A DNA stretch of 64,000 nt from an uncultured Thermoleophilia bacterium (GTDB taxonomy: Bacteria; Actinomycetota; Thermoleophilia; UBA2241). The notes under the pieces were generated by a model. It worked only from the letters and a program-made list of their open reading frames with translations. It did not search any database and was not told the origin of the DNA. Within the stretch, counting starts at the first letter, position 1; every line of letters begins with the position of its first letter. Shown here one piece after another: positions 4,740-57,335 of this stretch. Made by a program: the position numbers and the translations under genes. Location of the stretch: assembly GCA_963717965.1 (NCBI GenBank), contig CAVQXS010000004.1, positions 1,228 through 65,227 on the forward strand, written 5' to 3'.

Positions 4740-6281
4740 TCAGCCGCCGATCAGCAGCTTGAGCGCGCCCTGCGCCGCCTGCAGCAGCGGCTGGGGGAAC
4801 AGGCCCACGAGCACGACGCCGAGCGCGGCGATGGTGACGGCGGTGGCGACGCCCATGTTGGACGCGGCCGGCTCGGCCTCGACCTCGGCGCCCTCGGGCG
4901 CCTCGCGGAAGTACAGGTACCAGACGACGCGCAGGTAGTAGAACGCCGACACGGCGCTCATGATCACGGCGACGATGGCGAGCCAGGTGAGGTCGGCCTG
5001 GATGACCGCGGTGAAGAGGTAGAACTTGCCCCAGAAGCCCACGGTCGGCGGGATGCCGGTGAGCGAGATCATGAACAGCGTCATGAGGATGGCCGGCCAC
5101 GGCATGGTGCGGCCCAGGCCGGCCAGGCCCTCGAGCGAGTAGTCGTACCTGCGCTTGGCGCGGATCCAGATGAGCACGCCGAAGGCGCCGAGGTTCATGA
5201 GCGCGTAGGCGGCCAGGTAGAAGAGGATCGCGCTGATGCCGAGGGTCTCGCCGCTCTTGCCGGCGGCGATGACGCCCAGCGTGAGGTAGCCGGCGTGGGC
5301 GATGCTCGAGTAGGCGAGCATGCGCTTGAGGTTGCGCTGCGGCAGGGCGAGCACGTTCCCGACCACCATCGTGAGCACCGCGAGGATGATCATGACGTGG
5401 CCCCAGTCGGCCCAGGCGAGGCCGGCGGCCATGATGAAGAGCTTGGCGAAGCCGGCGAAGGCGGCGGCCTTGACGGCGGTGGCCATGAAGGCCGTGACCG
5501 GGGTGGGCGCCCCCTCGTAGACGTCGGGCGCCCAGCTGTGGAACGGCACCGCCGAGACCTTGAAGCCGAAGCCGGTGACGACGAGCGCGAAGGCGACGAC
5601 GAGGAAGCCGTCGGCGGCCAGGCCGGAGGCCTGCAGGACCGCGAGCCCCTTGGCGATGCCGGCGTAGCTCGTCTGCCCCGTCGCCGCGTAGAGCAGCGCG
5701 AGGCCGAAGGCGAGGATCGCCGAGGAGAAGGCGCCGGTGACGAAGTACTTGAGCGACGCCTCGGTCGAGCGCTCGTCGCGCCAGATGTAGCCGGCGAGGA
5801 TGTAGGTCGGCAGCGACATGAGCTCGAACGAGACGAAGAAGGCGATGACGTCGGTGCTCATCACCATGCCGATCATGCCGGTGACGACGAGCAGCAGCAG
5901 GCCGTAGAACTCGCCGCGGGCGGCGCCGCGCTCGGCCAGGTAGGCGTCGGAGAGCAGCACGGCGAGCACGCCGATGGCGGCGAACAGCACGACGGCGTAG
6001 AGCGCGTAGCGGTCGTGCCCGATCATCCCCGCGAAGCCGACGACGGCCTCGCGGCGGCCGAACACGAGCCCGCCGGAGAAGACCTTCCAGACGGCGAAGC
6101 CGGCGGTCCACTGGCCCCACTGGCCGACGGCGACGGCGGCGCCGGCGAGCAGGCCGGCGACGGCGATCCAGGCCAGCGCGCCCTTGCGCCTCAGGAACAG
6201 GTCGGCGACGAAGACGACGATCGCCGCGACGGCGATGACGACGCCCGGCAGGATCACGGTGATGGTGTTGTTCACGGGCAT
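4740..6281 (-). CDS. nuoN: NADH-quinone oxidoreductase subunit N
   Basis: EASLKYF, FKVSAVPFHSWAPDVYEGAPTPVTAF, KRMLAYSSIAHAGY. Confidence 0.95.
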   Translation of the reverse strand: MPVNNTITVILPGVVIAVAAIVVFVADLFLRRKGALAWIAVAGLLAGAAVAVGQWGQWTAGFAVWKVFSGGLVFGRREAVVGFAGMIGHDRYALYAVVLFAAIGVLAVLLSDAYLAERGAARGEFYGLLLLVVTGMIGMVMSTDVIAFFVSFELMSLPTYILAGYIWRDERSTEASLKYFVTGAFSSAILAFGLALLYAATGQTSYAGIAKGLAVLQASGLAADGFLVVAFALVVTGFGFKVSAVPFHSWAPDVYEGAPTPVTAFMATAVKAAAFAGFAKLFIMAAGLAWADWGHVMIILAVLTMVVGNVLALPQRNLKRMLAYSSIAHAGYLTLGVIAAGKSGETLGISAILFYLAAYALMNLGAFGVLIWIRAKRRYDYSLEGLAGLGRTMPWPAILMTLFMISLTGIPPTVGFWGKFYLFTAVIQADLTWLAIVAVIMSAVSAFYYLRVVWYLYFREAPEGAEVEAEPAASNMGVATAVTIAALGVVLVGLFPQPLLQAAQGALKLLIGG

Positions 6282-7874
6282 CTAGAACAGCCCCCTGGTG
6301 ACCTCGAAGAGCTGCGCCAGGCCGTGGACGGAGGCGCTCGCCTCCTGCATCGACGGGGTGACCCGCTGGAGGATCACCTGCACCGGCACGTGCAGGAACG
6401 CGAGGAAGGTCTGCGGGTAGACGCCCAGCCAGATGACGAAGACGACGAGCGGGACCAGCGAGGTGATCTCACGCGCGCTGAGGTCCTTGAGCGCGAACGA
6501 CGGCTTGACCTCGTCGTCGCCGCGGTCGTTGAACATCGTGCGCTGGAACATCCAGAGCAGGTAGGCGGCGGCGAGGATCACGCCGAGGGCGGCGACCGCC
6601 GCCATCCAGCGCGAGTACTCGAAGACGCCGAAGAGGCTGAGGAACTCGCCGACGAAGCCGCTCAGCCCGGGCAGGCCGAGGGAGCCGAAGGCGAAGAAGA
6701 GGAAGAAGCCGGCGAGCACCGGCAGCGGCTTCGCCAGCGAGCCCATGTCGGCGATCAGCCGCGTGTGCGTGCGCTCGTAGAGGAAGCCGACCATGAGGAA
6801 GAGGGCGCCCGTGAGGAAGCCGTGGCTGAGCATGACGAGGATGGCGCCCTCGATGCCGGCGGCGTTGCCGGCGACGGCGATGCCGGCGAAGATGCCGGCG
6901 GTGACGAAGCCCATGTGGCTCACGCTCGAGTAGGCGACGAGCTTCTTGAGGTCCTTCTGCATCAGCGAGACGAGCGCGCCGTAGACGATGGCGATCACCG
7001 AGAGCCCGACGACCCAGGGGACGAAGGTGACGGCGGCGTCCGGGAAGAAGGGCAGGCAGAAGCGCAGCATGCCGTAGCCGCCCATCTTCAGGAGGACGCC
7101 GGCCAGGATCACGGAGCCCGCCGTGGGCGCCTCGACGTGCGCGTCGGGGAGCCAGGTGTGCAGCGGGAACATCGGCACCTTGATGGCGAAGGCGACGAAG
7201 AAGGCGAGGAACGCCCAGAACTGCAGGTGGTACGAGTACACCGCCTTGCTCAGCGCCTGGATGTCGAAGGTGAGCGTCCCGGTCGCGTTCTTGACGTAGT
7301 ACACGACGACGATGATCGCCAGCAGCATGAGCAGGCTGCCGACGAGCGTGAACAGGAAGAACTTGATCGCCGCGTAGACGCGCCGCGGGCCGCCCCAGAC
7401 GCCGATGATGAAGTACATCGGGATGAGCATGGCCTCCCAGAACACGTAGAAGAGGAAGAGGTCGGTGGCGCAGAAGACGCCGACCATGCCCACCTCGAGC
7501 AGCAGCAGCGAGATGAAGAAGCCCATCTCGCGGTCCTTGACGTAGTTCCAGCTGGCGATGATGACGATCACGCCGAGCAGCGTGGTGAGGAAGACGAGCA
7601 GCGCGGCGATGCCGTCGACGCCCATGCCGTAGCGGATGTTGAGCGTCTTGATCCAGCTGATGTTCTCGGCGAACTGCATGCCCGGCAGCTTGGTCTTGAA
7701 GGCGAACAGCATCCACACCGAGAGCGCGAAGGCGGCCAGCGTGACGACCAGCGAGACGACCTTGTAGACGGCCGGCTTGCCGCGCCCGACGAGCAGGATG
7801 AGCAGCACGCCCGCCAGCGGCAGGAAGGTGATGACGGAGAGCAGCGGGAAGCCGATCTGGTCGCTCCAGCTCAT
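6282..7874 (-). CDS. nuoM: NADH-quinone oxidoreductase subunit M
   Basis: FYVFWEAMLIPMY, AIKVPMFPLHTWLPDAHVEAPTAGSVILAGVLLKMG. Confidence 0.95.
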   Translation of the reverse strand: MSWSDQIGFPLLSVITFLPLAGVLLILLVGRGKPAVYKVVSLVVTLAAFALSVWMLFAFKTKLPGMQFAENISWIKTLNIRYGMGVDGIAALLVFLTTLLGVIVIIASWNYVKDREMGFFISLLLLEVGMVGVFCATDLFLFYVFWEAMLIPMYFIIGVWGGPRRVYAAIKFFLFTLVGSLLMLLAIIVVVYYVKNATGTLTFDIQALSKAVYSYHLQFWAFLAFFVAFAIKVPMFPLHTWLPDAHVEAPTAGSVILAGVLLKMGGYGMLRFCLPFFPDAAVTFVPWVVGLSVIAIVYGALVSLMQKDLKKLVAYSSVSHMGFVTAGIFAGIAVAGNAAGIEGAILVMLSHGFLTGALFLMVGFLYERTHTRLIADMGSLAKPLPVLAGFFLFFAFGSLGLPGLSGFVGEFLSLFGVFEYSRWMAAVAALGVILAAAYLLWMFQRTMFNDRGDDEVKPSFALKDLSAREITSLVPLVVFVIWLGVYPQTFLAFLHVPVQVILQRVTPSMQEASASVHGLAQLFEVTRGLF

Positions 7875-7875
7875 G

Positions 7876-9792
7876 TCAGCTCCCCCACACCCAGGCGAGG
7901 ACGACGACGAGCACGAGCATGCCGCCGAAGACGTACATCGCGTAGTTCTGCACGCGGCCCGTCTGGATGGGCCGCAGGTGGTCGCCGAACCAGTCCCAGA
8001 GCCAGGCGACGCCGTTGACGGCGCCGTCGATGACGCGCGCGTCGACGAAGGTCCAGAGCCAGCTGGCGAAGCCGAGCGTGGCGCCCACGGGCACGACCGC
8101 GTAGAGGTCGTCCAGGTACACCTTGTTGAGGCTGACGCGGTAGACGCCCGGCAGGCGCTCGGCGAGGCGCCCGGGGGCGTCCGTCTGGCGCACGTAGAGC
8201 CACCAGGCGATGTACAGCCCGACGAGCACGGTGACGAGCGAGGCGAGCATCAGCAGGCCGCCCTCGCCGGCCCAGTGGAAGGCCTCGCCCTCGACGTCGA
8301 AGAACACCGGGTGCAGGAACTCGTGGATCCAGCCCTCCTCGGGCGGGAAGCCGACGACGATGCCGAGCAGCGTCGCCGGGATGGCGAGCAGCACGAGCGG
8401 CACGGTCATGATCGGCGGGGACTCGTGGATGTGCGCCTGGACCTCGGCGTCGGCGCGGTTCTCGCCCCAGAAGGTCATGAAGATGAGGCGGCCCATGTAG
8501 ATGGCGGTGAGCAGCACGGTGATCATCGCCACCGCCCAGACCACGTACTGGCCCTTGAGGAAGGTGGCGCCGACGATCTCGTCCTTGGCCCAGAAGCCGG
8601 CGAAGGGGATCATGCCGACCATGGAGAGGGCGCCGGCGAGCATCGTCCAGAAGGTGAGCGGGATCTTCTTGCGCAGCCCGCCCATCTTGCGCATGTCCTG
8701 CTCGCCGCCCATGGCGTGGATCACCGAGCCCGAGCAGAGGAAGAGGAGGCCCTTGAAGAAGCCGTGCGCGAACAGGTAGAAGATGCCGGCCACCCAGGCG
8801 CCCGCGCCGAGGGCGACGAACATGAAGCCCAGCGACGAGATGGTGGAGTAGGCGATCACCTTCTTGATGTCGTTCTGGGTGATCGCGATGTAGGCGGCGA
8901 GGATGGCCGTGAAGATGCCGACGATCATGACCACGGTCATCGCCGTGTCGCTCTGGATGAACAGCGGGTACGAGCGCGCCACCATGTAGACGCCGGCGTT
9001 GACCATGGTGGCGGCGTGGATCAGGGCGCTGACCGGGGTCGGGCCCTCCATGGCGTCCGGGAGCCACACGTGCAGCGGGAACTGCGCGCTCTTGCCGATC
9101 GCGCCGGTGAAGAGCAGCAGGCAGATCCAGGTCATGGTGCCGGCGGCGATGTCGCCCTTCTCCGCCGCCTCGAAGACGCCGGTGAACTGCAGCGTCCCGG
9201 TGACCACGAAGATGAGGAACATCGCCAGGGTGAAGCCGAAGTCGCCCACGCGGTTGACGATGAACGCCTTCTTGCCCGCCTGGCTGGCGCTCTTCTTGCG
9301 GAACCAGAAGCTGATCAGCAGGTAGGAGCAGAGGCCCACGCCCTCCCAGCCCAGGAACAGCAGCAGGTAGCTGTCGGCGAGGATGAGCACGAACATCGCG
9401 AACATGAACAGGTTGAGGTAGGCGAAGAAGCGGTAGTAGCCCTCGTCGCCGTGCATGTAGCCGATCGAGTAGTAGTGGACCAGCATGCCGATGACGCCGA
9501 CGACCAGCAGCATGACGCCGGTGAGCGTGTCGACCTGGAAGCCCCAGGGCACGGTGAACTGGCCGGCGGCGATCCAGGTGAAGGCGTTCCAGACGAAGGT
9601 CTCCTCCTGGTGACGGAAGGCCCACTCGAAGCCGTAGACGGAGAGCACGGCCGAGATGGTCACCATGGCCACGGGGAAGATGTGCGCGTGCTTGCCCCAG
9701 CGCTTGCCGAACAGCAGCGTCACGATGAAGCCGAGCAGCGGCAGCAGCGGGATCAGCGCGACGGCGATCTTCATGTAGTCGGTCCCCTCCAC
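7876..9792 (-). CDS. nuoL: NADH-quinone oxidoreductase subunit L
   Basis: GKSAQFPLHVWLPDAMEGPTPVSALIHAATMV and the C-terminal QTGRVQNY motif. Confidence 0.95.
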   Translation of the reverse strand: MEGTDYMKIAVALIPLLPLLGFIVTLLFGKRWGKHAHIFPVAMVTISAVLSVYGFEWAFRHQEETFVWNAFTWIAAGQFTVPWGFQVDTLTGVMLLVVGVIGMLVHYYSIGYMHGDEGYYRFFAYLNLFMFAMFVLILADSYLLLFLGWEGVGLCSYLLISFWFRKKSASQAGKKAFIVNRVGDFGFTLAMFLIFVVTGTLQFTGVFEAAEKGDIAAGTMTWICLLLFTGAIGKSAQFPLHVWLPDAMEGPTPVSALIHAATMVNAGVYMVARSYPLFIQSDTAMTVVMIVGIFTAILAAYIAITQNDIKKVIAYSTISSLGFMFVALGAGAWVAGIFYLFAHGFFKGLLFLCSGSVIHAMGGEQDMRKMGGLRKKIPLTFWTMLAGALSMVGMIPFAGFWAKDEIVGATFLKGQYVVWAVAMITVLLTAIYMGRLIFMTFWGENRADAEVQAHIHESPPIMTVPLVLLAIPATLLGIVVGFPPEEGWIHEFLHPVFFDVEGEAFHWAGEGGLLMLASLVTVLVGLYIAWWLYVRQTDAPGRLAERLPGVYRVSLNKVYLDDLYAVVPVGATLGFASWLWTFVDARVIDGAVNGVAWLWDWFGDHLRPIQTGRVQNYAMYVFGGMLVLVVVLAWVWGS

Positions 9793-9802
9793 GGTCCCCT
9801 CG

Positions 9803-10111
9803 TCAGCCCTTGAGCTCGTCGAAGGTGTCGGCCTGCACGGTGCGCTTGTTGCGGTAGTTGGCGATCACGATGGCGAGGCCGATGGTCACTTCGGCGGCGG
9901 CGATCACGATGATGAAGAGCGCGAAGAGCGTGCCCGCCCCCTTGGCGCCGCCACGGAAGTTGGCGGTCGCGACGAGGGCGATGTTGACGGCGTTGAGCAT
10001 GACCTCGAGGCTCATCACGACGAGGATGACGTTGCGCCGCGCGAGCACGCCGAAGGCGCCGATGCAGAAGAGCAGGAAGGCGAGCAGCAGCCACCAGTAG
10101 AGGGCGCTCAT
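9803..10111 (-). CDS. nuoK: NADH-quinone oxidoreductase subunit K
   Basis: RRNVILVVMSLEVMLNAVN, AAAEVTIGLAI; start taken at ATG 10111. Confidence 0.92.
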   Translation of the reverse strand: MSALYWWLLLAFLLFCIGAFGVLARRNVILVVMSLEVMLNAVNIALVATANFRGGAKGAGTLFALFIIVIAAAEVTIGLAIVIANYRNKRTVQADTFDELKG

Positions 10112-10163
10112 GACGCCTCGCCTTCCGGCGTACACGAGCGGGCCGCCGTAGGTAGACCGCTCA

Positions 10164-10673
10164 TCAGCGCTCCTTCTCGCGGGTCGCGAGCACGATCGCG
10201 CCGATCATCGCCGCGACGAGCACGAGCGAGACCAGCTCGAAGGGGAACACGTAGCGGTCGAAGATGAGCTTGGAGAGCTGGCGCAGGCCGGGCGTGAGCG
10301 ACTTGTCGCCGGCGGCGCCGATGTCGGCCGAGAGGGCGACGATGGCGAGCAGCGCGGCGCCGAAGAGCGCCACCACGGCGGCGATCGCCGTCTGGCGGTT
10401 GAAGAACAGGTCGTAGCCGCCGTGCTGCACCTCGGTGAGCATGATCGCGAAGATGATCACGATCGAGATGGCGCCGACGTAGACGAGGATCTGGATGATC
10501 GCCACCAGCGGCGCGTTGAGCAGGGCGTAGGCGAAGGCGACGCCGAGGAAGCAGAACACCATGGAGACGGCGGAGTACATGATCTTCTTGAACAGCACGA
10601 CGCCGAGGCCGCAGACGAGCACCCAGAAGGCGACGACGAGGAAGTACCAGAAGTGGAAGTCGCCGCCGGGCAT
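10164..10673 (-). CDS. nuoJ: NADH-quinone oxidoreductase subunit J
   Basis: QILVYVGAISIVIIFAIML and YVFPFELVSLVLVAAMIGAIVL; the ATG overlaps the upstream stop. Confidence 0.92.
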   Translation of the reverse strand: MPGGDFHFWYFLVVAFWVLVCGLGVVLFKKIMYSAVSMVFCFLGVAFAYALLNAPLVAIIQILVYVGAISIVIIFAIMLTEVQHGGYDLFFNRQTAIAAVVALFGAALLAIVALSADIGAAGDKSLTPGLRQLSKLIFDRYVFPFELVSLVLVAAMIGAIVLATREKER

Positions 10674-13147
10674 CAGGCCTGCTCCTCCGGGTCGTCGAGC
10701 GCGATCGGGTCGTCCTTCATCGGCTGCCAGACGTAGCCGAGGCCGAGCTCGGCGTCGCGCACGTGCGGGACGAGGTCCTTGACCGTCTCGTGCAGCGGGT
10801 CGACGGCGAGCGACTCGCGGATGTAGAGCGACTCGCGCGCCATCGTCGTGCGGCTGTAGCCGGCGAGCTCGAAGAAGTCGGTCTGCTCGAGCGCGTCGTA
10901 GGGGCAGACCTCGACGCACTCGCCGCAGAAGATGCAGCGGCTCTCGTCGAGGTCGTAGCTGCCGAGGATGCGCGGGTTGGTCTCGATCGAGCCGGTCGGG
11001 CAGGTCTCGGCGCACTTGCCGCAGCTCACGCAGCCGACCAGCTGCAGCGGCAGGTTGTCGGCGGTGCTGACGATGGTGTCGAAGCCGCGGTCCATGTTGT
11101 CGTAGCAGCTCGACCCGACCTCCATGCGGCAGACGCGCACGCAGCGGCCGCAATTGATGCAGCGGTTGGGCTCGCGCATGATGAAGTCGTGGCGGAAGTC
11201 GGCCGGGTAGTCGTGGGCGTCGCCGCCGTGGAAGCGGTTCTTGAAGACCTCGTACTCGATGCCGTAGCGCTGCAGGTCGCACTTGCCGCTGGCCGGGCAG
11301 TAGCAGTCGAGGCAGAGCTCGGCGCCGCGCACCGCTTCGTCTTCGCCGAAGCCGAGCTCGATCTGCTTGAAGTTCGTGCGCCGGTCCTCGGGCTCGAGCT
11401 TGGGCATCTCGGCCGGCGGGCTCGGGTGCGTCACGTCGGTGGTCATGTCGATGAACACCGGCGGGATCTCGGCCATGCGCGAGATGCGCGGGTCGAGGTC
11501 GGTCTTGGTGCTCAGCGCGGTGAAGAACGGCGTCGCCTTGAGCTCGGCGAGCGACTGCGAGACGTCCTGCATGTCGGCGCCGCGGAGGTAGGCGTCCATG
11601 CTCCAGGCGGCCTTCTTGCCCTGGGCGATGGCCTGGATCACGGTCTGCGCGCCGAGCACGGCGTCGCCGCCGGCGAACACGCGCGGGTCCTCGGTCTGGA
11701 AGGTCCAGTCGTCGACCTGGATGGTGCGCCACTTGGTGCGTTTGACGCCCTGCTCCTCGCTGGTGCCGTCGAGCTTGGGGTACTGGCCGATGGCGGTGAT
11801 CACCTGGTCGCACTCGACGACGAACTCGGAGCCCTCGATGGGCACGGGGCGGCGGCGGCCGGAGGCGTCGGGCTCGCCGAGCTCCATGCGCAGCATCTCG
11901 ATGCCGGTGACCTTGTTGCCCGCGTCGGTGAGCACCTTGACGGGCGCGCACAGCAGCTCGAGCTTGACGCCCTCCTCCTCGGCCTCGTCGACCTCGGTGA
12001 CATGAGCGGGCATCTCCTTGCGCGAGCGGCGGTAGAGACAGGTGACCTCGGCGGCGCCCTTGCGGAGGCTGGTGCGGCAGGCGTCCATGGCGGTGAAGCC
12101 GCCGCCGATGACGGTGACCTTGTCGCCGACGTGGACGCTGCCGGTGACCTCGAGCTCGCCGAGGAAGTCGACGGCGGTGACGACGCCGTCGGCGTCCTCG
12201 CCGGGGCAGCCCATGTCGTTGCTGTTGAAGGCGCCGAGGGCGAGGAAGACGACGTCGTACTCCTCGAGCAGGTCCTCGAGCTGGTAGTCGACGCCCAGGC
12301 GGCTGTTGACCTGGAGCTCGACGCCCATGCGCCAGAGCACGTTGATCTCCTTGTCGACCAGGTCGCGCGGCAGGCGGTAGCTCGGGATGCCGTAGCGCAG
12401 CATGCCGCCCGGCTTGGGCATGGCCTCGAAGATCTTGACCGCGTGCCCCTCGAGCCGCGCGTAGAAGGCGGCGGCCATGCCGGCAGGCCCGCCGCCGACG
12501 ATGGCGATCTTCTTGCCGGTGTCGGCCTTCGGCTCGACCGGCAGCAGCAGCTCGCCGGTCTGCTCCTCGTCGACCGTCTGGTCGGCCATGAAGCGGTGCA
12601 GCTGGCAGATGGTGATCGGGTGCTCGACCAGCTGCCGGCGGCACGGGCCCTCGCAGGGCCGCGGGCAGACGCGCCCGAGGATAGCCGGGAACGGCAGGTC
12701 CTCGCGCAGCTTGCGCACGCCGTTCTTGTAGTCCTTGTGGGCGATGTAGTCGAGGAACTGCGGGATCTTGATGTGCGTCGGGCAGGCGTCGCGGCAGGGC
12801 GGCGTGCAGAAGGAGTTGTGGTCGCTGAGCAGCAGCTCGAGGTAGAGGTGCCGCATGGCGCGGATCTTCTCGGTGTTGGTGTGCACGACCATGCCGTCGG
12901 AGACGGCCGCGGAGCAGCTCGGGACCAGCTTGCGCGCGCCCTCGACCTCGACGATGCACATGCGGCAGGCGGCGGTGGCCGGCAGGCGCGGCTCGTAGCA
13001 GAGCGTCGGGATGTGGATGCCGATGCGCTGCGCCGCGTCGAGGATCGTGTCGCCGCGCTCGCAGATCACGTCCTGACCGTCGACGGTCAGGGTGATCTGG
13101 CCGGGGCGCGGCGTCGTCTGCGGCACGTTCTCCACCGTCGTCGCCAT
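10673..13147 (-). CDS. NuoG-type Fe-S scaffold with an inserted GltD/NfnB-like FAD/NADP(H) oxidoreductase, fused to the C-terminal half of NuoI
   Basis: N-terminal 2Fe-2S domain (PTLCY...CRMCIVE...PSC); PPCRDACP/GRVCPRPCEGPC; GGGPAG, GGMLRYGIP, GGGFTAMD, YRRS, FAGGD; then CINCGRCVRVC, CVSCGKCAETCP and the NuoI-type YDLDESRCIFCGECVEVCPYDAL...FELA. Confidence 0.85.
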   Translation of the reverse strand: MATTVENVPQTTPRPGQITLTVDGQDVICERGDTILDAAQRIGIHIPTLCYEPRLPATAACRMCIVEVEGARKLVPSCSAAVSDGMVVHTNTEKIRAMRHLYLELLLSDHNSFCTPPCRDACPTHIKIPQFLDYIAHKDYKNGVRKLREDLPFPAILGRVCPRPCEGPCRRQLVEHPITICQLHRFMADQTVDEEQTGELLLPVEPKADTGKKIAIVGGGPAGMAAAFYARLEGHAVKIFEAMPKPGGMLRYGIPSYRLPRDLVDKEINVLWRMGVELQVNSRLGVDYQLEDLLEEYDVVFLALGAFNSNDMGCPGEDADGVVTAVDFLGELEVTGSVHVGDKVTVIGGGFTAMDACRTSLRKGAAEVTCLYRRSRKEMPAHVTEVDEAEEEGVKLELLCAPVKVLTDAGNKVTGIEMLRMELGEPDASGRRRPVPIEGSEFVVECDQVITAIGQYPKLDGTSEEQGVKRTKWRTIQVDDWTFQTEDPRVFAGGDAVLGAQTVIQAIAQGKKAAWSMDAYLRGADMQDVSQSLAELKATPFFTALSTKTDLDPRISRMAEIPPVFIDMTTDVTHPSPPAEMPKLEPEDRRTNFKQIELGFGEDEAVRGAELCLDCYCPASGKCDLQRYGIEYEVFKNRFHGGDAHDYPADFRHDFIMREPNRCINCGRCVRVCRMEVGSSCYDNMDRGFDTIVSTADNLPLQLVGCVSCGKCAETCPTGSIETNPRILGSYDLDESRCIFCGECVEVCPYDALEQTDFFELAGYSRTTMARESLYIRESLAVDPLHETVKDLVPHVRDAELGLGYVWQPMKDDPIALDDPEEQA

Positions 13148-13149
13148 GG

Positions 13150-15069
13150 TCAGGCCTCAGCCCCCTCGGCGGCCGCGCCGGCGACCGCCAGCTCGACGCC
13201 CGAGCGCACCTTGACGGCGTCGAACTTGCAGACCTGGCGGCAGGTGTCGCACTTGATGCAGTTGGCCACGTCGATGACGTGCAGCTGCTTCTTCTCGCCG
13301 CTGATGCACGAGGTGGGGCACTTCTTGGCGCACAGGGTGCAGCCGGTGCAGGCGTCGGCGTCGATGTAGTAGGTGATCAGCGCCTTGCACTTGCCCGCCG
13401 GGCAGCGCTTCTCGCGGATGTGCGCCTCGTACTCGCTGCGGAAGTACTTGATCGTCGTGAGCACGGGGTTCGGGGCGGTGCCGCCGAGCGCGCACAGCGA
13501 GCCGTCGATGATGTAGTGGCCCATCTCCTCGAGGAGCTCGATGTCGCCCTCGCGGCCTTCGCCCTCCTTGATGCGGTCGAGCGTCTCGAGCATGCGCTTG
13601 GTGCCGAGCCGGCAGGGGACGCACTTGCCGCAGCTCTCCTTCTGGGTGAAGTCGAGGAAGAAGCGCGCGAGGTCGACCATGCAGGTCTCTTCGTCGACCA
13701 CGACCATGCCGCCGGAGCCGACGATGGCGCCGGTCGCGGCGAGGCTCTCGTAGTCGACCGGCGTGTCGAGGAGCGAGGCGGGCACGCAGCCGCCGGAGGG
13801 GCCGCCGAGCTGGACGGCCTTGAACTTCTTGCCGTCCTTGATGCCGCCGCCGACGTCGAAGATGAGGTGCCGGAGGCTGGACCCCATCGGCACCTCGACG
13901 AGGCCGCCGTTGACGACCTTGCCGGCGAGGCTGAAGGCCTTGGTGCCGCGGCTGGTCTCGGCGCCGAGCGCGGAGTAGGCCTCGGCGCCGTGCTTGATGA
14001 TCCACGGGACGTTGGAGAACGTCTCGACGTTGTTGATGTTGGTCGGCTTGCCGTAGAGGCCCGACACCGCCGGGAACGGCGGCCGCGTGCGCGGCATGCC
14101 GCGCTTGCCCTCGATCGAGGCGATGAGCGCCGTCTCCTCGCCGCAGACGAAGGCGCCGGCGCCGAGCTTGAGGTGCACGTTGAACTCCCAGCCGGTGCCG
14201 AAGACGTCCTTGCCCAGGAAGCCGCGCTCCTCGGCGGCGGCGACCGCCATGGTGAGGCGCTTGACCGCCTGCGGGTACTCGGCGCGCACGTACACGTACC
14301 CCTCGTGCGCGCCGATCGCGTAGCTGCCGATGATCATGCCCTCGATGACGACGTGCGGGTCGCCCTCGAGGATCGAGCAGTCCATGAACGCGCCGGGGTC
14401 GCCCTCGTCGGCGTTGCAGATGAGGTACTTCTCGTCGCCCGGCGAGGCCGCGGCGAACTTCCACTTGACGCCGGTCGGGAAGCCGGCGCCGCCGCGGCCG
14501 CGGATGCCCGAGTCGGTGACGTGCTCGATGATCCACTCGGGCGTCTGCTCGGTGAGCGCCATGCGCGCCGCCTCGTAGCCGCCGACGGCGATGTACGCGT
14601 CGATGCTCTCCGGGTTGATGACGCCGACGTCGCGCAGGGCGATGCGCGTCTGCGCCTTGTAGAACCCGATGTCGTGCCAGTCGCGGATGCGCTCGCCGCT
14701 CTGCGCGTCCTTGTAGAGGAAGCGCTCGACCGGCGTGCCGCCCTTGAGGTGCTCCTCGACGACCTTGGCGACGTCCCTCGGCTTCAGGTGTCCGTAGAGG
14801 GTGTCGTCGCTGAGCACCACCACCGGGCTCATCGAGCAGAGCCCGTGGCAGCCGATGATGCTGACCTCGACGCTGTCGCCCAGCCCGGCCTCCTGGACCT
14901 CCTGGACGAAGGTGTCGAAGACGGCGAGCGAGCCGGCGAACATGCAGGCGGTGCCGGCGCACACCTTGACGGCGTAGCCGCCGCCGGGGCGCTCGGCCAC
15001 GCTGACGTTGCGGGCGTCCGTGTCCGGACGCGGTGTAGTCGTCTCTTCAGCCATGATCTCTCTGCTCAT
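13150..15069 (-). CDS. nuoF: HydB/BfuB-type NuoF (FMN/NADH subunit with N-terminal 2Fe-2S and C-terminal 2x[4Fe-4S])
   Basis: CAGTAC...CHGLC; RGRGGAGFPTG; NADEGDPGAFMD; GAFVCGEETAL; ESCGKCVPCR; HIREKRCPAGKC; CTGCTLCAKKCP and CIKCDTCRQVC. Confidence 0.92.
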   Translation of the reverse strand: MSREIMAEETTTPRPDTDARNVSVAERPGGGYAVKVCAGTACMFAGSLAVFDTFVQEVQEAGLGDSVEVSIIGCHGLCSMSPVVVLSDDTLYGHLKPRDVAKVVEEHLKGGTPVERFLYKDAQSGERIRDWHDIGFYKAQTRIALRDVGVINPESIDAYIAVGGYEAARMALTEQTPEWIIEHVTDSGIRGRGGAGFPTGVKWKFAAASPGDEKYLICNADEGDPGAFMDCSILEGDPHVVIEGMIIGSYAIGAHEGYVYVRAEYPQAVKRLTMAVAAAEERGFLGKDVFGTGWEFNVHLKLGAGAFVCGEETALIASIEGKRGMPRTRPPFPAVSGLYGKPTNINNVETFSNVPWIIKHGAEAYSALGAETSRGTKAFSLAGKVVNGGLVEVPMGSSLRHLIFDVGGGIKDGKKFKAVQLGGPSGGCVPASLLDTPVDYESLAATGAIVGSGGMVVVDEETCMVDLARFFLDFTQKESCGKCVPCRLGTKRMLETLDRIKEGEGREGDIELLEEMGHYIIDGSLCALGGTAPNPVLTTIKYFRSEYEAHIREKRCPAGKCKALITYYIDADACTGCTLCAKKCPTSCISGEKKQLHVIDVANCIKCDTCRQVCKFDAVKVRSGVELAVAGAAAEGAEA

Positions 15070-15827
15070 CCCTTCTGACCGCCGACCTCTTCCATGAGGT
15101 CGCGGATGATCTTGCGCGTGGCGTCAGGGGTGAGGCCGCCGTAGGTGTTCTCGCCGATGCGCATGACCGGAGCCTGCGAGCAGGCGCCCATGCAGGCGAC
15201 CGACGAGAGCGTGAACTTCATGTCGCTGGTCGTCTTGCCGTCGGCGACCCCGAGCTCCTCCTCCAAGGCCTCGGTGATCTGGACCGCCCCTGCGACGTGG
15301 CAGGCGGTGCCGTGGCAGACGTCGATGATGTGCTCGCCGACCGGCGAGAGCCGGAACTGGTTGTAGAAGCTCGAGACGCCGTAGATCTGGCTGAGCGAGA
15401 CGCCGGTCTGCAGGCTGATCTCCTGGAGGGCGATGCGCGGCAGGTAGCCGTACACCTCCTGGGCGTTCTGCAGCATGGCGATGAGGCCGGTGCCGTGCTC
15501 GTAGTAGTCGTCGAGCACCGGCTGCAGCGCCTTGAGGTCGATGCCCTGCTGGGCCGCGAGACGAGCTTCGCTGATCCGCGCGGCGTTGGGCACCGGCAGC
15601 GTGTACTTGCTCGTGTGGTTCACGCGGATCACCTGCACGGGGCAGTTGCTCTCGCAGAGCGTGCACGAGCGGCAGCGCGGCTCGCCGCTGGACGGGTCGA
15701 TGACCACGCGGAAGAGGCCGCGGCTGCGCGCCGGCAGCAGCTCGCGCTCCTCCGGGTACTGCACGGTGATCTTCTTCATGGGCAGGTGACGCAGCGTCTG
15801 GCGCATCGCCTTGAACATGCCGAGCAT
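15066..15827 (-). CDS. nuoE: Fusion of the N-terminal half of NuoI to a NuoE/HydC-type 2Fe-2S subunit
   Basis: TVQYPEE...RSRG...RCRSCTLCESNCPVQVI (NuoI N-half), then LQNAQEVYGYLP, VCHGTACH, VACMGACSQAP (NuoE). Confidence 0.85.
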   Translation of the reverse strand: MLGMFKAMRQTLRHLPMKKITVQYPEERELLPARSRGLFRVVIDPSSGEPRCRSCTLCESNCPVQVIRVNHTSKYTLPVPNAARISEARLAAQQGIDLKALQPVLDDYYEHGTGLIAMLQNAQEVYGYLPRIALQEISLQTGVSLSQIYGVSSFYNQFRLSPVGEHIIDVCHGTACHVAGAVQITEALEEELGVADGKTTSDMKFTLSSVACMGACSQAPVMRIGENTYGGLTPDATRKIIRDLMEEVGGQKG

Positions 15828-16948
15828 CAGGCGCTCACCACCGGCTGGCGCTCACGCTGCTTGCGCAGGCGGCGCTTGAGGAGCGGGTCGAAGAGCGCGA
15901 CGAAGGCGAAGAAGGCGATCCAGCTGAAGACCGCGAGGCCCCACTTCCAGCTGGGCACCCAGAGGATGATCGCCGCCGTGGCGAGGATGTTCACGAGCCC
16001 GAGCGGGATGAGGATCTTCCAGGCGAAGGCCATGAGCTGGTCGACCTGGAGGCGCGGCAGCGAGAGCCGGATCCAGACCAGCGCGAACACGAGCACGTAG
16101 GTCTTGGCGAGGAACCAGACGATGCCGATCCAGTCGACGCCCCAGAAGTCGATGGCGCCGGCGAACGGCCCCATCCAGCCGCCGAAGAAGAGCGTCACGG
16201 CGACCATCGACATGATCGTCATGCCGGCGTACTCGTTGAGGAAGAACATGCCGAAGCGCATGCCCGAGTACTCGGTGCCGTAGCCGGACACGAGCTCGGA
16301 CTCCGACTCGGGGAGGTCGAACGGGCCGCGGTTCAGCTCGGCGATGGAGGCGATGTAGAAGATGAGGAAGCTGAAGGGCGCGTAGAAGACGATCCACTCG
16401 TAGCCGGACTGGAAGGCGACGACGGCCTCGATGCGCAGCGACCCGACGACCATCGCCACGATGAGGAGGCCGAGGATCATCGGGATCTCGTAGCTGATCA
16501 TCTGGGCGGCGGCGCGCAGCGCCCCCACCAGCGAGTACTTGTTGCGCGACGACCAGCCGCCGAGGAGGATCGAGAGCGTCGTGAAGCTGGTGATCGCGAC
16601 GAGGAAGATGATGCCGACGTTGAGGCTGGTCGCCATGAGCCCGCCGGTGTAGGGGATCACCAGCTGGATGGCGACCGCGCCGATCATCACCGTGACCGGC
16701 GCGAGCGTGAACAGGAACGGGTCGGCGAGCAGCGGGCGGAAGTCCTCCTTGCCCATCATCTTGAAGGCGTCGGCGATGCTCTGCAGCACGCCGTGCGGCC
16801 CGGTGCGGTTGGGGCCGTGGCGGTCCTGCATGAACGCCAGGGCGCGGCGCTCGAAGACGATGTTGACGAGCGCCGCCACGAACACCACCGCGTAGGAGAT
16901 GACGACGAAGAGGATGGCCCGGAGGATGCCGACGATGATGTCCACCAT
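15827..16948 (-). CDS. nuoH: NADH-quinone oxidoreductase subunit H
   Basis: ERRALAFMQDRHGPNRTGP, RAAAQMISYEIP, AELNRGPFDLPESESELVSG. Confidence 0.95.
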   Translation of the reverse strand: MVDIIVGILRAILFVVISYAVVFVAALVNIVFERRALAFMQDRHGPNRTGPHGVLQSIADAFKMMGKEDFRPLLADPFLFTLAPVTVMIGAVAIQLVIPYTGGLMATSLNVGIIFLVAITSFTTLSILLGGWSSRNKYSLVGALRAAAQMISYEIPMILGLLIVAMVVGSLRIEAVVAFQSGYEWIVFYAPFSFLIFYIASIAELNRGPFDLPESESELVSGYGTEYSGMRFGMFFLNEYAGMTIMSMVAVTLFFGGWMGPFAGAIDFWGVDWIGIVWFLAKTYVLVFALVWIRLSLPRLQVDQLMAFAWKILIPLGLVNILATAAIILWVPSWKWGLAVFSWIAFFAFVALFDPLLKRRLRKQRERQPVVSA

Positions 16949-18162
16949 CAGCGGTCGATCCCTCCCAGCACGAGGTCGATGCTGCCCGAGATGGCCACGG
17001 CGTCGGCGATCTTGTTGCCGCTGAGGATCTTGGGGAACAGCTGCAGGTTGCAGAAGCAGGGGTCGCGGAACTTGAGCCGGTACGGGTACCGCGACCCGTC
17101 GCTCTCGATGTAGGTGCCGAACTCGCCGCGCGGGTTCTCCTGCCCGACGTAGCACGCGCCCGGGGGCGGCGTGATCACGTAGGGCGCGCGCAGCGAGCCC
17201 ACCTGGACGGGGCCCTTGGGCAGCATGTCGAGGCACTGCTCGATGATCTTGACGCTCTCGCGCATCTCGTCCATGCGCACGCGGTAGCGGTCGAAGATGT
17301 CGCCGTGCTGCTCGGTGACGACCTCGAAGTCGAGCTCCGGGTAGACCGAGTAGGGGCGCGAGCGGCGCAGGTCCAGCGCGACGCCGGAGGCGCGCGCGTT
17401 GGGGCCGGTGATGCCGTAGTCGACGACGTCCTGCTGGGTGATGACGCCCTTGCCCTGGGTGCGCTGCAGGAAGATGGCGTTGTGGTCGACGAGGGCCTCG
17501 TACTCCTTGATCATCTTCGGGAACTTCGAGATGTAGTCGCGGCACTTCTCGACCCAGCCGTCGGGCAGGTCGTAGCGCACGCCGCCGAAGCGGAAGTAGT
17601 TGAACATCATGCGCGCGCCGGTGAGCTCCTCCATCAGGTCGAGGATGGTCTCGCGGTCGCGGAACATGTAGAAGACCATCGCCGTGCCCAGCGGCGAGAG
17701 GTCGGCGGTGAAGGTGCCGACCGCCACGAGGTGGCTGGCGATGCGCATGAGCTCGCCGGTGATGACGCGGATGAACTCCGCCCGCCGCGTCACCTGGATG
17801 CCGGCGAGCTTCTCGACCGTCATCACGTAGGCCCACTCGCAGTTGATGCTGGCGACGTACTCGGTGCGGTCGACGATGGGGATGTACTGGAAGTAGGTGC
17901 GGCGCTCGGCGAGCTTCTCCTTGCAGCGGTGCAGGTAGCCGATCACCGGGATGACGTCCTTGACGAGCTCGCCGTCGAGCGTCACGACCAGCCGCAGCAC
18001 GCCGTGCGTGCTGGGGTGCTGCGGCCCCATGTTGACCACGACCTCGTTGAAGGCGAGGCCGTCGACGTCCGAGCCCTCGCCGCGCGCCGTCGACTCCTCG
18101 ATGCGGCGCAGCGCGAGCTTGACGGCCTCGTCCGGCTCGGGGCTCTCGAACTGGTCATACAT
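16948..18162 (-). CDS. nuoD: NADH-quinone oxidoreductase subunit D
   Basis: [27 protein letters not shown]-terminal [11 protein letters not shown]; no NiFe CxxC motifs. Confidence 0.93.
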
Positions 18163-18650
18163 GCGGGTGGTTCTCCGCGAGGTCGACGTAGTCTTTGCGC
18201 AGCGGGTGCCCGACGAAGTCGTCCTTGAGCAGGATGCGGCGCATGTCGGGGTGGCCGAGGTAGACGATGCCGACCATGTCCCAGGACTCGCGCTCGTGCC
18301 AGTCCGCGGCCGGCCAGACGCCGGTGACGGTGTCGACCTCGGGCTTCGCGCGCGGCAGGTCGACGTGCAGCTCGAGGTAGGTGTTCGTCTTCCACGAGTA
18401 GACGTGGTAGACGCTCTCGAGCGAGGTGCGGCGGTCGACGCCGGCGATCCAGTTGAGGGTCTCGTAGCCGGCGTCGGCGTCGGCCTTGAGGCGCGCGGCG
18501 ACGTCCTTGAGCTTCTCGCGCGCGCAGCGCGCGACGACGGTGTCCGGCTCCTGGATGCGCACGTCCGTGAGGTCGCCGGCGAAGCGCTCGGCGAGCAGCG
18601 TCGGCGATGGCGTCCATGCTCATGGGGTTGCTGCCGACGACGAGGCCCAT
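18155..18650 (-). CDS. nuoC: NADH-quinone oxidoreductase subunit C; frameshift near 18600
   Basis: [35 protein letters not shown]; the N-terminus [11 protein letters not shown] is in the adjacent frame. Confidence 0.85.
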
Positions 18651-18655
18651 CGCGC

Positions 18656-19248
18656 TCAGGCCTCTTCGGCCGGCGCGGCCGCGGGAGCCGCCTCCGTCGC
18701 CGGCGCGGCCGCCTCGGGGCCGCCGGCTTCTCGGGGACGAACTTGTGCTGCTGGATCTTGCCCTGCAGCTCCAGCAGCCCCTGGAAGAGCGCCTCGGGGC
18801 GCGGCGGGCAGCCGGGGATGTAGACGTCGACCGGCACGACCTTGTCGACGCCGTTGACGACGTTGTAGCCGTCGTAGAACGGGCCGCCGCTGGTGGCGCA
18901 GGCGCCCATGCTGATGACCCACTTGGGCTCCGACATCTGGTCGTAGAGGCGCTTGAGCACCGGCGCCATCTTCTCGTTGACGGTGCCGGCGACGATCATG
19001 AGGTCGCACTGGCGCGGCGTGGGGCGGAACACCTCCATGCCGTAGCGGGCGACGTCGAAGCGGGCGAAGCCGGAGCTGAGCATCTCGATGGCGCAGCAGG
19101 CGAGGCCGTAGGTGAACGGGAAGACCGAGTGCGAGCGCGCCCAGCTGAAGATGAAGTCGGCGGTGGTGGTGATGACGTTCGGCTCGCTGAAGTGCTCGAG
19201 CTTGGGGTACCGGAGGCCCTTGGCGCGCTCCGGCACGGACTCACTCAC
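18656..19248 (-). CDS. nuoB: NADH-quinone oxidoreductase subunit B; frameshift near 18735 in the C-terminal tail
   Basis: [34 protein letters not shown]; the GTG overlaps the nuoA stop. Confidence 0.9.
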
Positions 19249-19613
19249 GCCCACTCGAGGGCCCCCTTGCGCCAGGCGTAGAGCAGGCCGAAGGCGAGCA
19301 CGGCGATGAACACCAGCATCTCGATGAACCCGGCGGTGCCGAGGCTGCGGAAGACGATCGCCCACGGGAACAGGAAGGCCGCCTCCACGTCGAACACGAG
19401 GAACAGGAGGCCGAAGACGAAGTAGCGCACGGCGAACGGCTGCCACGGGTTGCCGACCGGCGGGATGCCGCACTCGTACGGCTGCAGCTTCTCGGGCGTG
19501 AGGTGGCTCGGATTGATGAGCTTGGAGAAGAGCAGGATGAGGACGACCAGCGCCGCGCCGGCGACGATGAACAGCCAGACATAGAGCCAGTCAGTGAGAT
19601 ATGCGTTCGTCAT
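19245..19613 (-). CDS. nuoA: NADH-quinone oxidoreductase subunit A
   Basis: [31 protein letters not shown]. Confidence 0.95.
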
Positions 19614-55524: not shown

Positions 55525-56925
55525 CTACAGCGCCTTGCGCTTGTCGACGACGCGCACGGCCTTGCCCTCGGAGCGCTGGATGGCCTTGGGCTCCTTGAGC
55601 TTCACCGCGACCTGGATGTTGAGCACGTTGTAGATCTGCGCCTGCACCGCGCGCTGGAAGCGCTCGAGGTCGCCCATCGTCTCGGCGAAGAGGTCCTCGC
55701 CGACCTCGACCCAGACCTCGATGACGTCGAGGTAGCCCTTGCGGTCGACGAGGATCTGGTAGTGCGGCTCGATCGAGGGGATGCTCATCAGCACCTCTTC
55801 GATCTGGCTGGGGAACACGTTGACGCCCCGGATGATGAGCATGTCGTCGCTGCGCCCGATCGGCTTGCTCATGCGCGCCGAGGTGCGGCCGCAGGCGCAG
55901 GGATCCGAGGTGAGGCTGCAGAGGTCGCGTGTGCGGTAGCGGATGAGCGGCTGGGCCTCGCGGGAGAGGGTCGTGAAGACGAGCTCCCCGACCTCGCCCT
56001 CGGGCAGCGGCCGCAGCGTGTCCGGGTCGATGATCTCGGCCAGGTAGTGGTCCTCGTTGACGTGCATGCCCGCCTTGCAGAGACACTCGTAGGCCACGCC
56101 CGGGCCGCCCATCTCGGACAGCCCGTAGATGTCGAGGGCGTGCTCCCCGAGCCCCGCCTCGATCTGCAGGCGCAGCTCGTTGGTCCACGGCTCGGCGCCG
56201 TGGAAGCCGACGCGGATCGGCAGGTCCTCCGGCCGCAGGCCGCGGTCGCGGGCGGCGTCGGCCAGGTACATGGCGTAGGAAGGCGTGCAGCTCAGGGCCG
56301 TGGCGCCGAAGTCGCGCATGATCTTGAGCTGCCGCTCCGTGTTGCCGCCGGAGATGGGCACGACGGTGCAGCCCAGGCGCTCGGCGCCGAGGTGCAGGCC
56401 GAGCCCGCCGGTGAAGAGCCCGTAGCCGAAGGCGTTCTGCAGGAGGTCGCCCGGATGCACGCCGCCGGCGGCGAGGGTCCGGGCGATCAGGTCCGCCCAC
56501 ACGTCGAGGTCGCCGCGCGTGTACCCGACGGTCGTCGGGTTGCCGGTCGTGCCGGAGCTGGCGTGCACGCGCACCACCTTGTCGCGCGGCCGCGCGAACA
56601 TCCCGAACGGGTAGTGGTCGCGCAGGTCGATCTTGGTGGTGAAGGGCAGGTCGGCGACGTCGCCGTGGCAGGTCACGTCGCCGGGCTCGAGGCCGAGCTC
56701 GTCCATCCTCTTGCGGTAGAAGGGGACGTTCTCGCGGGCGTTCTCGAGCGTCGCCCGCAGCCGCTGCAGCTGCAGCTCGCCGAGCTGCGGCGTGGGCAGC
56801 GTCTCCGCGGCCGGCTGCCAGTACAGACCGCCGGCCGCGTCCGCGGTGAGGTGTTCCGCGTGCGCGGCGTTGAGCGGTGCGCCTTCGGCGCCCCGCTCGA
56901 TACCTTCCCTACGGTGGGTATTCAC
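55525..56925 (-). CDS. paaK: Phenylacetate-CoA ligase
   Basis: HASSGTTG, FGYGLFTGGLG, DIYGLSE, RYRTRD, IIRGVNVFPSQIE, EGKAVRV. Confidence 0.92.
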   Translation of the reverse strand: MNTHRREGIERGAEGAPLNAAHAEHLTADAAGGLYWQPAAETLPTPQLGELQLQRLRATLENARENVPFYRKRMDELGLEPGDVTCHGDVADLPFTTKIDLRDHYPFGMFARPRDKVVRVHASSGTTGNPTTVGYTRGDLDVWADLIARTLAAGGVHPGDLLQNAFGYGLFTGGLGLHLGAERLGCTVVPISGGNTERQLKIMRDFGATALSCTPSYAMYLADAARDRGLRPEDLPIRVGFHGAEPWTNELRLQIEAGLGEHALDIYGLSEMGGPGVAYECLCKAGMHVNEDHYLAEIIDPDTLRPLPEGEVGELVFTTLSREAQPLIRYRTRDLCSLTSDPCACGRTSARMSKPIGRSDDMLIIRGVNVFPSQIEEVLMSIPSIEPHYQILVDRKGYLDVIEVWVEVGEDLFAETMGDLERFQRAVQAQIYNVLNIQVAVKLKEPKAIQRSEGKAVRVVDKRKAL

Positions 56926-57335
56926 AGGGCCCTCACCTCATCGTCGGAGAGGAGCTTCACCCTGCCGCCGAGCAGCTCCACGGCGCGGTCGATGTCGCGC
57001 ACGGCGAAGCAGATGTTCGAGAAGGAGATGCTGTAGAGATAGTCGATCGAGACGCCGGCGGCGGCGAGCTGGTCGAGCACCTCGGCGAGCCCGCCCGGCC
57101 GGTCCTCGACGCCGACGCAGAGGACCTGCGAGAAGTGCGTCGTGAACCCGGCGTCGTGCAGCAGCGTGCGTGCCCGTTCCGGTTCGGTGACGATCAGCCG
57201 GACGATGCCGTACTCGGCCGCCTCCGTGGTGGAGAAGCCGCGGATGTTGATGCCGGCCTTGCCGACGATGTCGGCGACCTCGGCCAGCCGGCCGCTGCGG
57301 TTCTCGAGAAACACGGTGAGCTGCGTGACCTTCAC
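56922..57335 (-). CDS. Tandem ACT-domain protein
   Basis: QLTVFLENRSGRL, GINIR, EDRPGGLA. Confidence 0.88.
   Translation of the reverse strand: MKVTQLTVFLENRSGRLAEVADIVGKAGINIRGFSTTEAAEYGIVRLIVTEPERARTLLHDAGFTTHFSQVLCVGVEDRPGGLAEVLDQLAAAGVSIDYLYSISFSNICFAVRDIDRAVELLGGRVKLLSDDEVRAL

Follow-up and report, generated by a model that had tools for sequence, protein, structure and literature searches.

The best solved relatives of the module described here are the soluble Nfn-Bfu/StnABC trimers, for which structures are available from Caldicellulosiruptor (NfnABC, 9BOV and 9BP5; PMC11829005), Thermococcus sibiricus (9N5U) and Sporomusa ovata (8OH5). A membrane-associated counterpart, Nuo-Bfu, has been predicted for Geobacter, Deferribacteres, Planctomycetes and Nitrospirae, with BfuABC as the NADH module of complex I (Schut et al. 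2022, PMC9304861). It is described there as a complex of 14 subunits, A to N, with BfuABC at the NuoEFG position, and is proposed to confurcate electrons from NADH and reduced ferredoxin onto menaquinone with proton pumping. The same authors predict Mbh-Bfu and Por-Bfu classes in Dehalococcoides, and Mbx-like operons with a GltD-like flavoprotein in place of NuoI have been reported (Degli Esposti 2015, PMC4758237). Here we describe a nuo operon of a different construction in a 64,000-nucleotide stretch of DNA (hereafter the window; contig CAVQXS010000004.1, positions 1,228 to 65,227) from an uncultured Thermoleophilia bacterium of the order UBA2241. In this operon, an Nfn/Stn-type Bfu cassette appears to lie inside the gene for the complex I ferredoxin subunit NuoI.

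The operon consists of 13 genes on the minus strand (4740-19613), which abut or overlap their neighbours by a few bases and are arranged in the order nuoA-B-C-D-H-[I(N)-bfuC]-bfuB-[bfuA-I(C)]-J-K-L-M-N, brackets enclosing fused genes. Homologues of all 11 conserved subunits of the complex I core (A, B, C, D, H, I, J, K, L, M and N) are encoded, NuoI as two halves only. No separate nuoI is found in the operon, and none lies between nuoH and nuoJ; the genes adjoin or overlap one another all the way between 16951 and 10673, which leaves no space for one. Instead, matches to Pfam, NCBIfam and Protein Data Bank (PDB) entries place the N-terminal half of NuoI in residues 1-76 of P0003 (15066-15827, minus strand; 253 residues), ahead of a NuoE/BfuC homologue (about residues 92-250), and the C-terminal half in residues about 724-790 of P0001 (10673-13147, minus strand; 824 residues), behind a BfuA/NfnA/StnA-type subunit. 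Against the 121-position NuoI model TIGR01971, residues 9-74 of P0003 match positions 3-66 (5.2e-13) and residues 724-769 of P0001 match positions 69-114 (2.7e-15), the two matches being complementary. Comparison by hhalign with 30 canonical NuoI sequences of the class gave the same division: P0003 1-72 aligned with NuoI 47-117 (probability 99.2, E 5e-20) and P0001 702-770 with NuoI 93-168 (probability 99.0, E 9e-18). In phmmer searches, the canonical NuoI encoded elsewhere in this genome (contig C12) aligned with P0003 13-76 and P0001 706-772, and NDUFS8/NuoI chains of the PDB matched P0003 4-70 and the final 109 residues of P0001, again in corresponding halves. P0003 carries the first CxxCxxCxxxCP motif of NuoI within residues 1-76. 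Three further motifs of the type CxxCxxCxxxC(P) follow the GltD-like domain of P0001, at 663, 706 and 738; homology to NfnA would pair 663 with 706 and leave 738 as the partner of the motif in P0003.

These observations suggest an in-frame insertion of a C-B-A cassette into the nuoI gene of an 11-subunit complex I core, at a point that separates its two Cys motifs. The remainder of P0003 is recognizably BfuC: 2Fe-2S_thioredx is matched at 2.5e-46, C171, C176, C212 and C216 are invariant in 26 of 26 sequences, and residues 92-248 match NfnC chains best (159-166 bits, 1.3e-47), compared with about 91 bits for Escherichia coli NuoE. In Nfn-Bfu, a mobile C-terminal domain of NfnC gates bifurcation (PMC12018979); the NuoI half need not hinder such movement, because it is fused to the opposite, N-terminal end of BfuC. 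A previous sequence-only reading of the window had proposed an electron-bifurcating transhydrogenase wired to a proton-pumping quinone reductase. It overlooked the split NuoI, which is the actual evidence for the wiring: because the NuoI halves are fused to BfuC and BfuA, the three Bfu-type subunits are, on this evidence, physically committed to the complex I core. The idea of a Bfu module on complex I, also contained in that reading, finds support in the sequence but is not new, having been put forward as Nuo-Bfu (PMC9304861).

P0002 (13150-15069, minus strand; 639 residues) is a BfuB/StnB/NfnB-type homologue of NuoF by its Pfam and PDB matches. Its Pfam domains are 2Fe-2S_thioredx (residues 26-106), Complex1_51K (2.4e-47), NADH_4Fe-4S (2.3e-33) and a Fer4 dicluster (567-620), from which an N-terminal [2Fe-2S] domain, an FMN/NADH site, the B1 cluster, a Cys3His site and a C-terminal 2x[4Fe-4S] domain are predicted. 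In a phmmer search against all PDB chains, residues 34-621 match NfnB, StnB and HydB chains with 650-800 bits, the best being 9bov_B (1.6e-239; 800 bits), followed by 7t2r_B (796), 9n5u_B (793), 8oh5_B (787), 7q4v_B (769), 8a6t_B (723) and 7p5h_B (652). The non-bifurcating FdsB, Nqo1 and NuoF cover just residues about 132-556 with 380-430 bits, and the match of canonical Nqo1/NuoF is confined to 148-555 (about 380-400 bits). With clusters named B1-B5 after PMC11829005, the predicted ligands are C37/C42/C74/C78 for B5, C463/H550/C556/C561 for B2, C480/C483/C486/C526 for B1, and C574-C584 and C604-C614 for B3/B4. Each of these 20 residues is kept in 38-39 of 39 orthologues that share 49-92% identity.

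In a tree of the genome's own B subunits, the Nuo-linked, C10-type and Por/Mbh-linked sequences form one group (Shimodaira-Hasegawa-like approximate likelihood ratio test support of 92), far from canonical NuoF; this is a quick tree with long branches from an unfinished careful search, and it uses the genome's own paralogues in place of characterized BfuB proteins. The closest paralogue (76% identity) belongs to a BfuB-BfuC pair without BfuA on contig C10 (C10:517855-524048), the BfuB of which is frameshifted in the assembly. The pair adjoins open reading frames that were assigned to folD, fchA and fhs solely on the basis of their N-terminal sequences. This neighbourhood hints at a link between the C10 pair and one-carbon (C1)-folate metabolism.

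The third cassette subunit, P0001, contains Fer2_4, Fer4_20 (6.6e-23), Pyr_redox_2 (4.7e-34), Fer4_Nqo3 and a Fer4 dicluster, and its residues 19-744 match 9bov_A at 1.8e-191, with 8oh5_C (8.6e-167) and 9n5u_A (1.2e-158) next. As in NfnA/StnA, a GltD/NfnL-like domain with 2x[4Fe-4S], FAD and an NADPH motif is inserted after the [2Fe-2S] domain. P0001 lacks the NuoG/Fdh-like C-terminal domain: its alignment to 9bov_A (1178 residues) ends at residue 698 of that chain, and the remainder is NuoI-like. All 24 orthologues compared conserve its FAD motif and every one of its Cys motifs. The sequence-only reading had called the NuoF homologue HydB/BfuB-like and had given the third subunit a full GltD/NfnB-like FAD domain with the NADP(H)-type motif GGGFTAMD...YRRS. 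Both descriptions are borne out, since the DEGDPGAFMD motif, CMVD...HIREKRCPAGKC and the two C-terminal CxxCxxCxxxC motifs are present in the P0002 translation and agree with the PDB matches, and the GGGFTAMD...YRRS motif is present in P0001 and agrees with the Pfam and 9bov_A matches. Pfam domains and the best PDB relatives over nearly full length likewise place all three subunits in the Bfu family and, specifically, in its GltD-bearing Nfn/Stn kind.

Compared with the known systems, the locus shares with Nfn-Bfu/Stn the N-terminal thioredoxin-like Cys4 site, FMN site, B1, Cys3His site and C-terminal 2x[4Fe-4S] domain of BfuB, the [2Fe-2S] site of BfuC, and the GltD/NfnL-like FAD domain at the same insertion point of BfuA. 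However, the genes of the soluble trimer have here come to lie between nuoH and nuoJ, BfuC carries the NuoI N-terminal half, and BfuA continues past residue about 720 as the NuoI C-terminal half rather than as an Fdh-like domain. With Nuo-Bfu the locus has in common a nuo cluster in which a Bfu-type B subunit takes the place of NuoF; it differs from Nuo-Bfu, as described in the main text of Schut et al. 2022, in having 13 genes, a cassette inside a split nuoI between nuoH and nuoJ, an NADPH-binding Nfn-type BfuA and a Thermoleophilia host. The words fused, fusion, split, NuoI, GltD and Actinobacteria are all absent from that main text (PMC9304861). As in the reported Mbx-like operons and the predicted Mbh-Bfu and Por-Bfu classes, a GltD-type NAD(P)H flavoprotein or Bfu module stands at the NuoI position of a complex-I-like membrane core, but here the core is of the full quinone type (NuoA-N, with an HPSTH NuoD) and NuoI is split, not replaced. 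Canonical 14-subunit complex I, represented by the C12 operon of this genome and Thermus thermophilus Nqo, shares a homologous membrane arm and Q module with the locus, the C12 copies being 40-47% identical; its NuoG, NuoE and NuoI are separate, unsplit proteins, and its NuoF matches only residues 148-555 of P0002. From the architecture only, we infer an origin independent of the Geobacter Nuo-Bfu. Our literature search found no paper on a split NuoI or on an Nfn-type Bfu module in a nuo operon; the supplementary tables of Schut et al. 2022 lay outside this search and could list such operons. What is new would accordingly be the variant, in which the A subunit is of the NADPH-binding Nfn type and NuoI is split, whereas Nuo-Bfu was already predicted and Nfn-Bfu already characterized.

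A scan of genome contigs returned 71 loci with 58-96% identity, together with two GltD-only loci. All but one of the 71 are titled as metagenome-assembled genomes (MAGs) of uncultured Thermoleophilia, Actinomycetota or Actinomycetes, the exception (L026) being titled Deltaproteobacteria, and the record titles give soils, peat, lake sediment, permafrost and anaerobic reactors as their sources. The detected genes stand in the same order in 46 of the 47 loci of at least 15 kb, the 47th being a GltD-only hit, and the I(N)-BfuC fusion begins with the NuoI N-terminus (MLG...) in 46 of 46. In a class-wide sample of 401 genomes, a best match of E <= 1e-100 was obtained in 64 of 79 genomes of one family (the window's own genome being additional) and in 0 of 321 genomes of other families, where the best value was 9.8e-58; the sample includes one unpublished genome (G344, family f3) that matches in the NuoE part only and on which no claim is based. 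Gene order and fusions are thus conserved within a single uncultured Thermoleophilia family. A single complex-I NuoD, encoded next to the fusion gene, is present in each of five congeners that are 97-100% complete. A canonical NuoI turned up in none of 6 genomes of the genus and in 2 of the 10 family members searched. The order UBA2241, which takes its name from MAG UBA2241 (locus L012), consists of poorly known MAGs from permafrost thaw and lake hypolimnia, according to PMC7438021.

Among the best 150 matches in a global library clustered at 50% identity, the full-length fused representatives are this family, P0129 and P0128 only. P0128 is a low-G+C protein of 251 residues with 42% identity and the same NuoI(N)-BfuC fusion, known from one 11.9-kb Logan contig; a search of metagenome contigs with P0128 returned only one fragment, of 43% identity. 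P0129 belongs to a second cluster, found in relatives (L084 and L086 of genome G014; L085 of G044), with the order porG-porD-porA-[half-ferredoxin-BfuC]-BfuB-[BfuA(GltD)-PorB]-NuoL-like-NuoH-like-x-NuoN-like-NuoCD/NiFe-like-NuoB-like. This cluster combines Por, Bfu and six Mbh/Nuo-like membrane and Q-module genes without a free NuoI/HycF, and it displays the same kind of half-ferredoxin fusions as the operon in the window, in whose genome it was not found.

The other genes of the operon, all on the minus strand, complete a core predicted to pump protons. They encode NuoA (19245-19613; Oxidored_q4, 5.4e-38), the N2 cluster subunit NuoB (18656-19248; Oxidored_q6, 4.7e-29), NuoC (18155-18623; NCBIfam NuoC_fam, 9.2e-35), NuoD in a short, FpoD-like form (16948-18162; NCBIfam NuoD models, 1e-137 to 1e-141; FpoD, 1.2e-116), NuoH (15827-16951, start taken from the translation; NADHdh, 1e-109), NuoJ (10164-10673; Oxidored_q3, 3.7e-31), NuoK (9803-10135; Oxidored_q2, 5.6e-27), NuoL (7876-9792; Proton_antipo_M, 6.2e-86; Proton_antipo_N, 2.6e-20), NuoM (6282-7874; Proton_antipo_M, 6.5e-78) and NuoN (4740-6281; Proton_antipo_M, 1.3e-71). 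A NuoBCD fusion (16948-19473) was considered first and was ruled out, as the middle of that reading frame is out-of-frame junk and NuoC lies in another frame. NuoD has HPSTH in place of the hydrogenase N-terminal Cys pair and no match to Pfam NiFeSe_Hases. The sequence-only reading was right about HPSTH, but its statement that NuoD lacks NiFe ligands went too far: two putatively vestigial Cys residues remain (in HRCKEK and DPCFC), which are conserved in the 44 orthologues compared and absent from the genome's canonical NuoD. Retention of the first and third NiFe-cluster ligands is described for NuoD of ancestral nuo operons (Degli Esposti 2015, PMC4758237). Lacking a complete set of NiFe Cys ligands, this NuoD is predicted to be of the quinone type and not of the hydrogenase type.

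The genome (2.65 Mb in 13 contigs, 80.9% complete) also contains a canonical 14-gene nuo operon (C12:133305-148325) with an intact NuoI and a NuoF of 454 residues. Given the distribution of canonical NuoI noted above, this operon is an exception in the family; recent acquisition or an error of binning may account for its presence. Besides several other Bfu-type B subunits, the genome has [FeFe]-hydrogenase hits, one [NiFe] hydrogenase, four POR-type (2-oxoacid oxidoreductase) loci, two COX1 loci and cytochrome bd. The sequence-only reading had proposed checking the genome for menaquinone synthesis, and the outcome is mixed: the futalosine-pathway gene MqnA/D gave a single PF02621 hit, and since MenA (TIGR00751) was not found in this 80.9% complete genome, the menaquinone assignment depends on that hit. 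Rnf and PntB were likewise not found at this completeness. Taken together, the POR, MqnA/D, cytochrome bd and COX1 genes and the lack of Rnf and PntB hits fit the mechanism set out below.

We think it probable, judging from gene content and fusions, that an 11-subunit-type complex I core took up an Nfn/Stn-type C-B-A cassette inside nuoI, so that NADH, NADPH and ferredoxin could feed menaquinone reduction with proton pumping. In such a complex, the two NuoI halves would reassemble into the ferredoxin domain that holds N6a and N6b, and the reassembled NuoI would tether the flavoprotein module to NuoB and NuoD, substituting as an anchor for the missing NuoG C-terminal domain. BfuB would take electrons from NADH at its FMN and from reduced ferredoxin at its C-terminal 2x[4Fe-4S] domain; BfuA would receive those of NADPH at the FAD of its GltD-like domain. 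Electrons would leave through the BfuA clusters and the split NuoI to N2 and menaquinone, with NuoH, NuoL, NuoM and NuoN pumping protons. The most likely mode, as proposed for Nuo-Bfu, would be confurcation of NADH and reduced ferredoxin onto the mid-potential BfuA branch, on which NADP+/NADPH would form a second port. With such a port, the complex could pass these electrons into respiration or else carry out the Nfn reaction. Bifurcation or confurcation, the use of ferredoxin and NADPH, and quinone reduction by the complex are all inferred here, and the data fit confurcation and simple parallel entry of the donors alike.

Several observations count against this proposal and have to be weighed with its alternatives. 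The window and 18 of 24 orthologues have an intact NADPH motif, but the Rossmann motif for NAD(P)H and the Arg pair of YRRS (P0001 residues 340-385) are degenerate in six deeper lineages (L053, L039, L060, L059, L062 and L068; L055 partly), where the FAD motif is kept. The NADPH port is consequently not universal and may have been lost in those six. P0001 residues 706-748 by themselves resemble a two-motif ferredoxin, so that another pairing of the four Cys motifs is possible. An AlphaFold2 model of P0001, built with 24 close orthologues, has a mean predicted local distance difference test (pLDDT) score of 60.1; it is confident for the [2Fe-2S] and GltD domains only and falls below 50 over residues 561-824. 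Finally, nuoB and nuoC are frameshifted as assembled, with two apparent 1-base shifts in the interval 18560-18740 that lie within about 120 bases. The nuoB frame is left without a stop, because what looks like a 1-base indel near 18712 shifts it off the TGA at 18656, at whose equivalent the relatives end in frame, and one extra base near 18600 puts the ATG of nuoC (18623) out of frame with its main body (18155-18562). Together with the complete canonical operon on C12, which could have taken over, these shifts would fit a decaying pseudogene cluster. We regard such decay as very improbable: the extra nuoC base is absent from all six aligned relatives and from RNA-library contigs of runs X15 and X16, frame shifts likewise interrupt BfuB paralogues on contigs C10, C2 and C3 of this assembly, a pattern that indel errors would produce, and the other 11 genes are intact with a third-codon-position G+C content (GC3) of 0.95-1.0. 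We read the nuoB and nuoC shifts as likely assembly indels. RNA-library contigs from two runs of two studies span all 30 bins of the operon at no less than 90% identity, a weak hint of expression, as these contigs come from relatives and such libraries may contain DNA. Scarcely credible is an operon that merely houses two separate enzymes, a soluble NfnABC and an 11-subunit complex I. The cassette is a contiguous C-B-A block, as in the soluble enzymes; however, NuoI exists there only as halves fused to BfuC and BfuA, BfuA lacks the Fdh-like C-terminal domain of 9bov_A and 8oh5_C, and a free, complete NuoI elsewhere in the genome was found in none of the six genomes of the genus.

If menaquinone acts as a strongly oxidizing sink for the BfuA branch, either NADH or NADPH by itself could suffice for quinone reduction, with no need of confurcation, which also weighs against the proposal, and menaquinone is, by established redox potentials, a far better acceptor than oxidation of NADH or NADPH needs. 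Equivalents of the canonical FMN-N3-N1b-...-N2 chain are present as well. The complex might then be a non-bifurcating, multi-donor NAD(P)H:menaquinone oxidoreductase, for which ferredoxin is no substrate and the Bfu-specific parts are structural or inherited baggage. We consider this unlikely, though it deserves to be taken seriously. The near-complete retention of the 20 ligand residues of the Bfu-specific sites speaks against it, as does the absence of these clusters from characterized non-bifurcating homologues, as reported by Schut et al. 2022 (PMC9304861). The lack of an Rnf hit to oxidize the ferredoxin from the four POR-type enzymes points the same way but is weak evidence, because the genome is 80.9% complete. 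It is improbable, in our judgement, that the complex runs mainly in reverse, with proton-motive force and menaquinol driving the reduction of one or more of NAD+, NADP+ and ferredoxin for biosynthetic use. Reversibility is established for complex I and for Nfn/Stn enzymes, and the aerobic oxidases of the genome could build the proton-motive force; however, this is the only complex I found in five of five congeners, so that forward oxidation of NADH is needed, and the genome encodes fermentative sources of reduced ferredoxin. We retain the forward, confurcating complex as the preferred reading.

The surroundings of the operon are unrelated to it, with tatC and a class A penicillin-binding protein gene upstream on the opposite strand and a YmdB-like gene downstream. 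The G+C content of the window is high (0.64-0.74). A large cell-envelope polysaccharide island (23897-52454) contains glycosyltransferases, a Wzm/Wzt ABC exporter, a Wzy_C ligase and DUF2142 genes, and its GC3 (0.73-0.88) lies below that of the nuo genes. At 55525-59715, an indolepyruvate/2-oxoacid:ferredoxin oxidoreductase-like gene (POR_N, TPP_enzyme_C and Fer4) stands beside a phenylacetate-CoA-ligase-like gene and is a predicted local source of reduced ferredoxin.

That Bfu modules work as confurcating heads on complex I has so far been a purely genomic proposal. A core subunit divided between two Bfu subunits is unusually direct sequence evidence that the module belongs to the pump. It also records an unusual evolutionary event, the in-frame insertion of a three-gene cassette into a gene for a ferredoxin fold, and suggests a route by which N-modules could be swapped onto an 11-subunit core. 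With its added NADPH site, and with this operon encoding the sole complex I in several near-complete genomes, the lineage offers a natural test case. More speculatively, and unlikely on present evidence, a widespread actinobacterial genus of soils and sediments might have as its sole complex I a four-substrate hub, in which the split NuoI builds an Nfn-type bifurcating module into the proton pump and the NADH, NADPH, ferredoxin and menaquinone pools are coupled to one another and to proton-motive force. If true, the Nfn reaction could be assisted by that force or could yield it, and electrons would be shared between respiration and NADPH supply.

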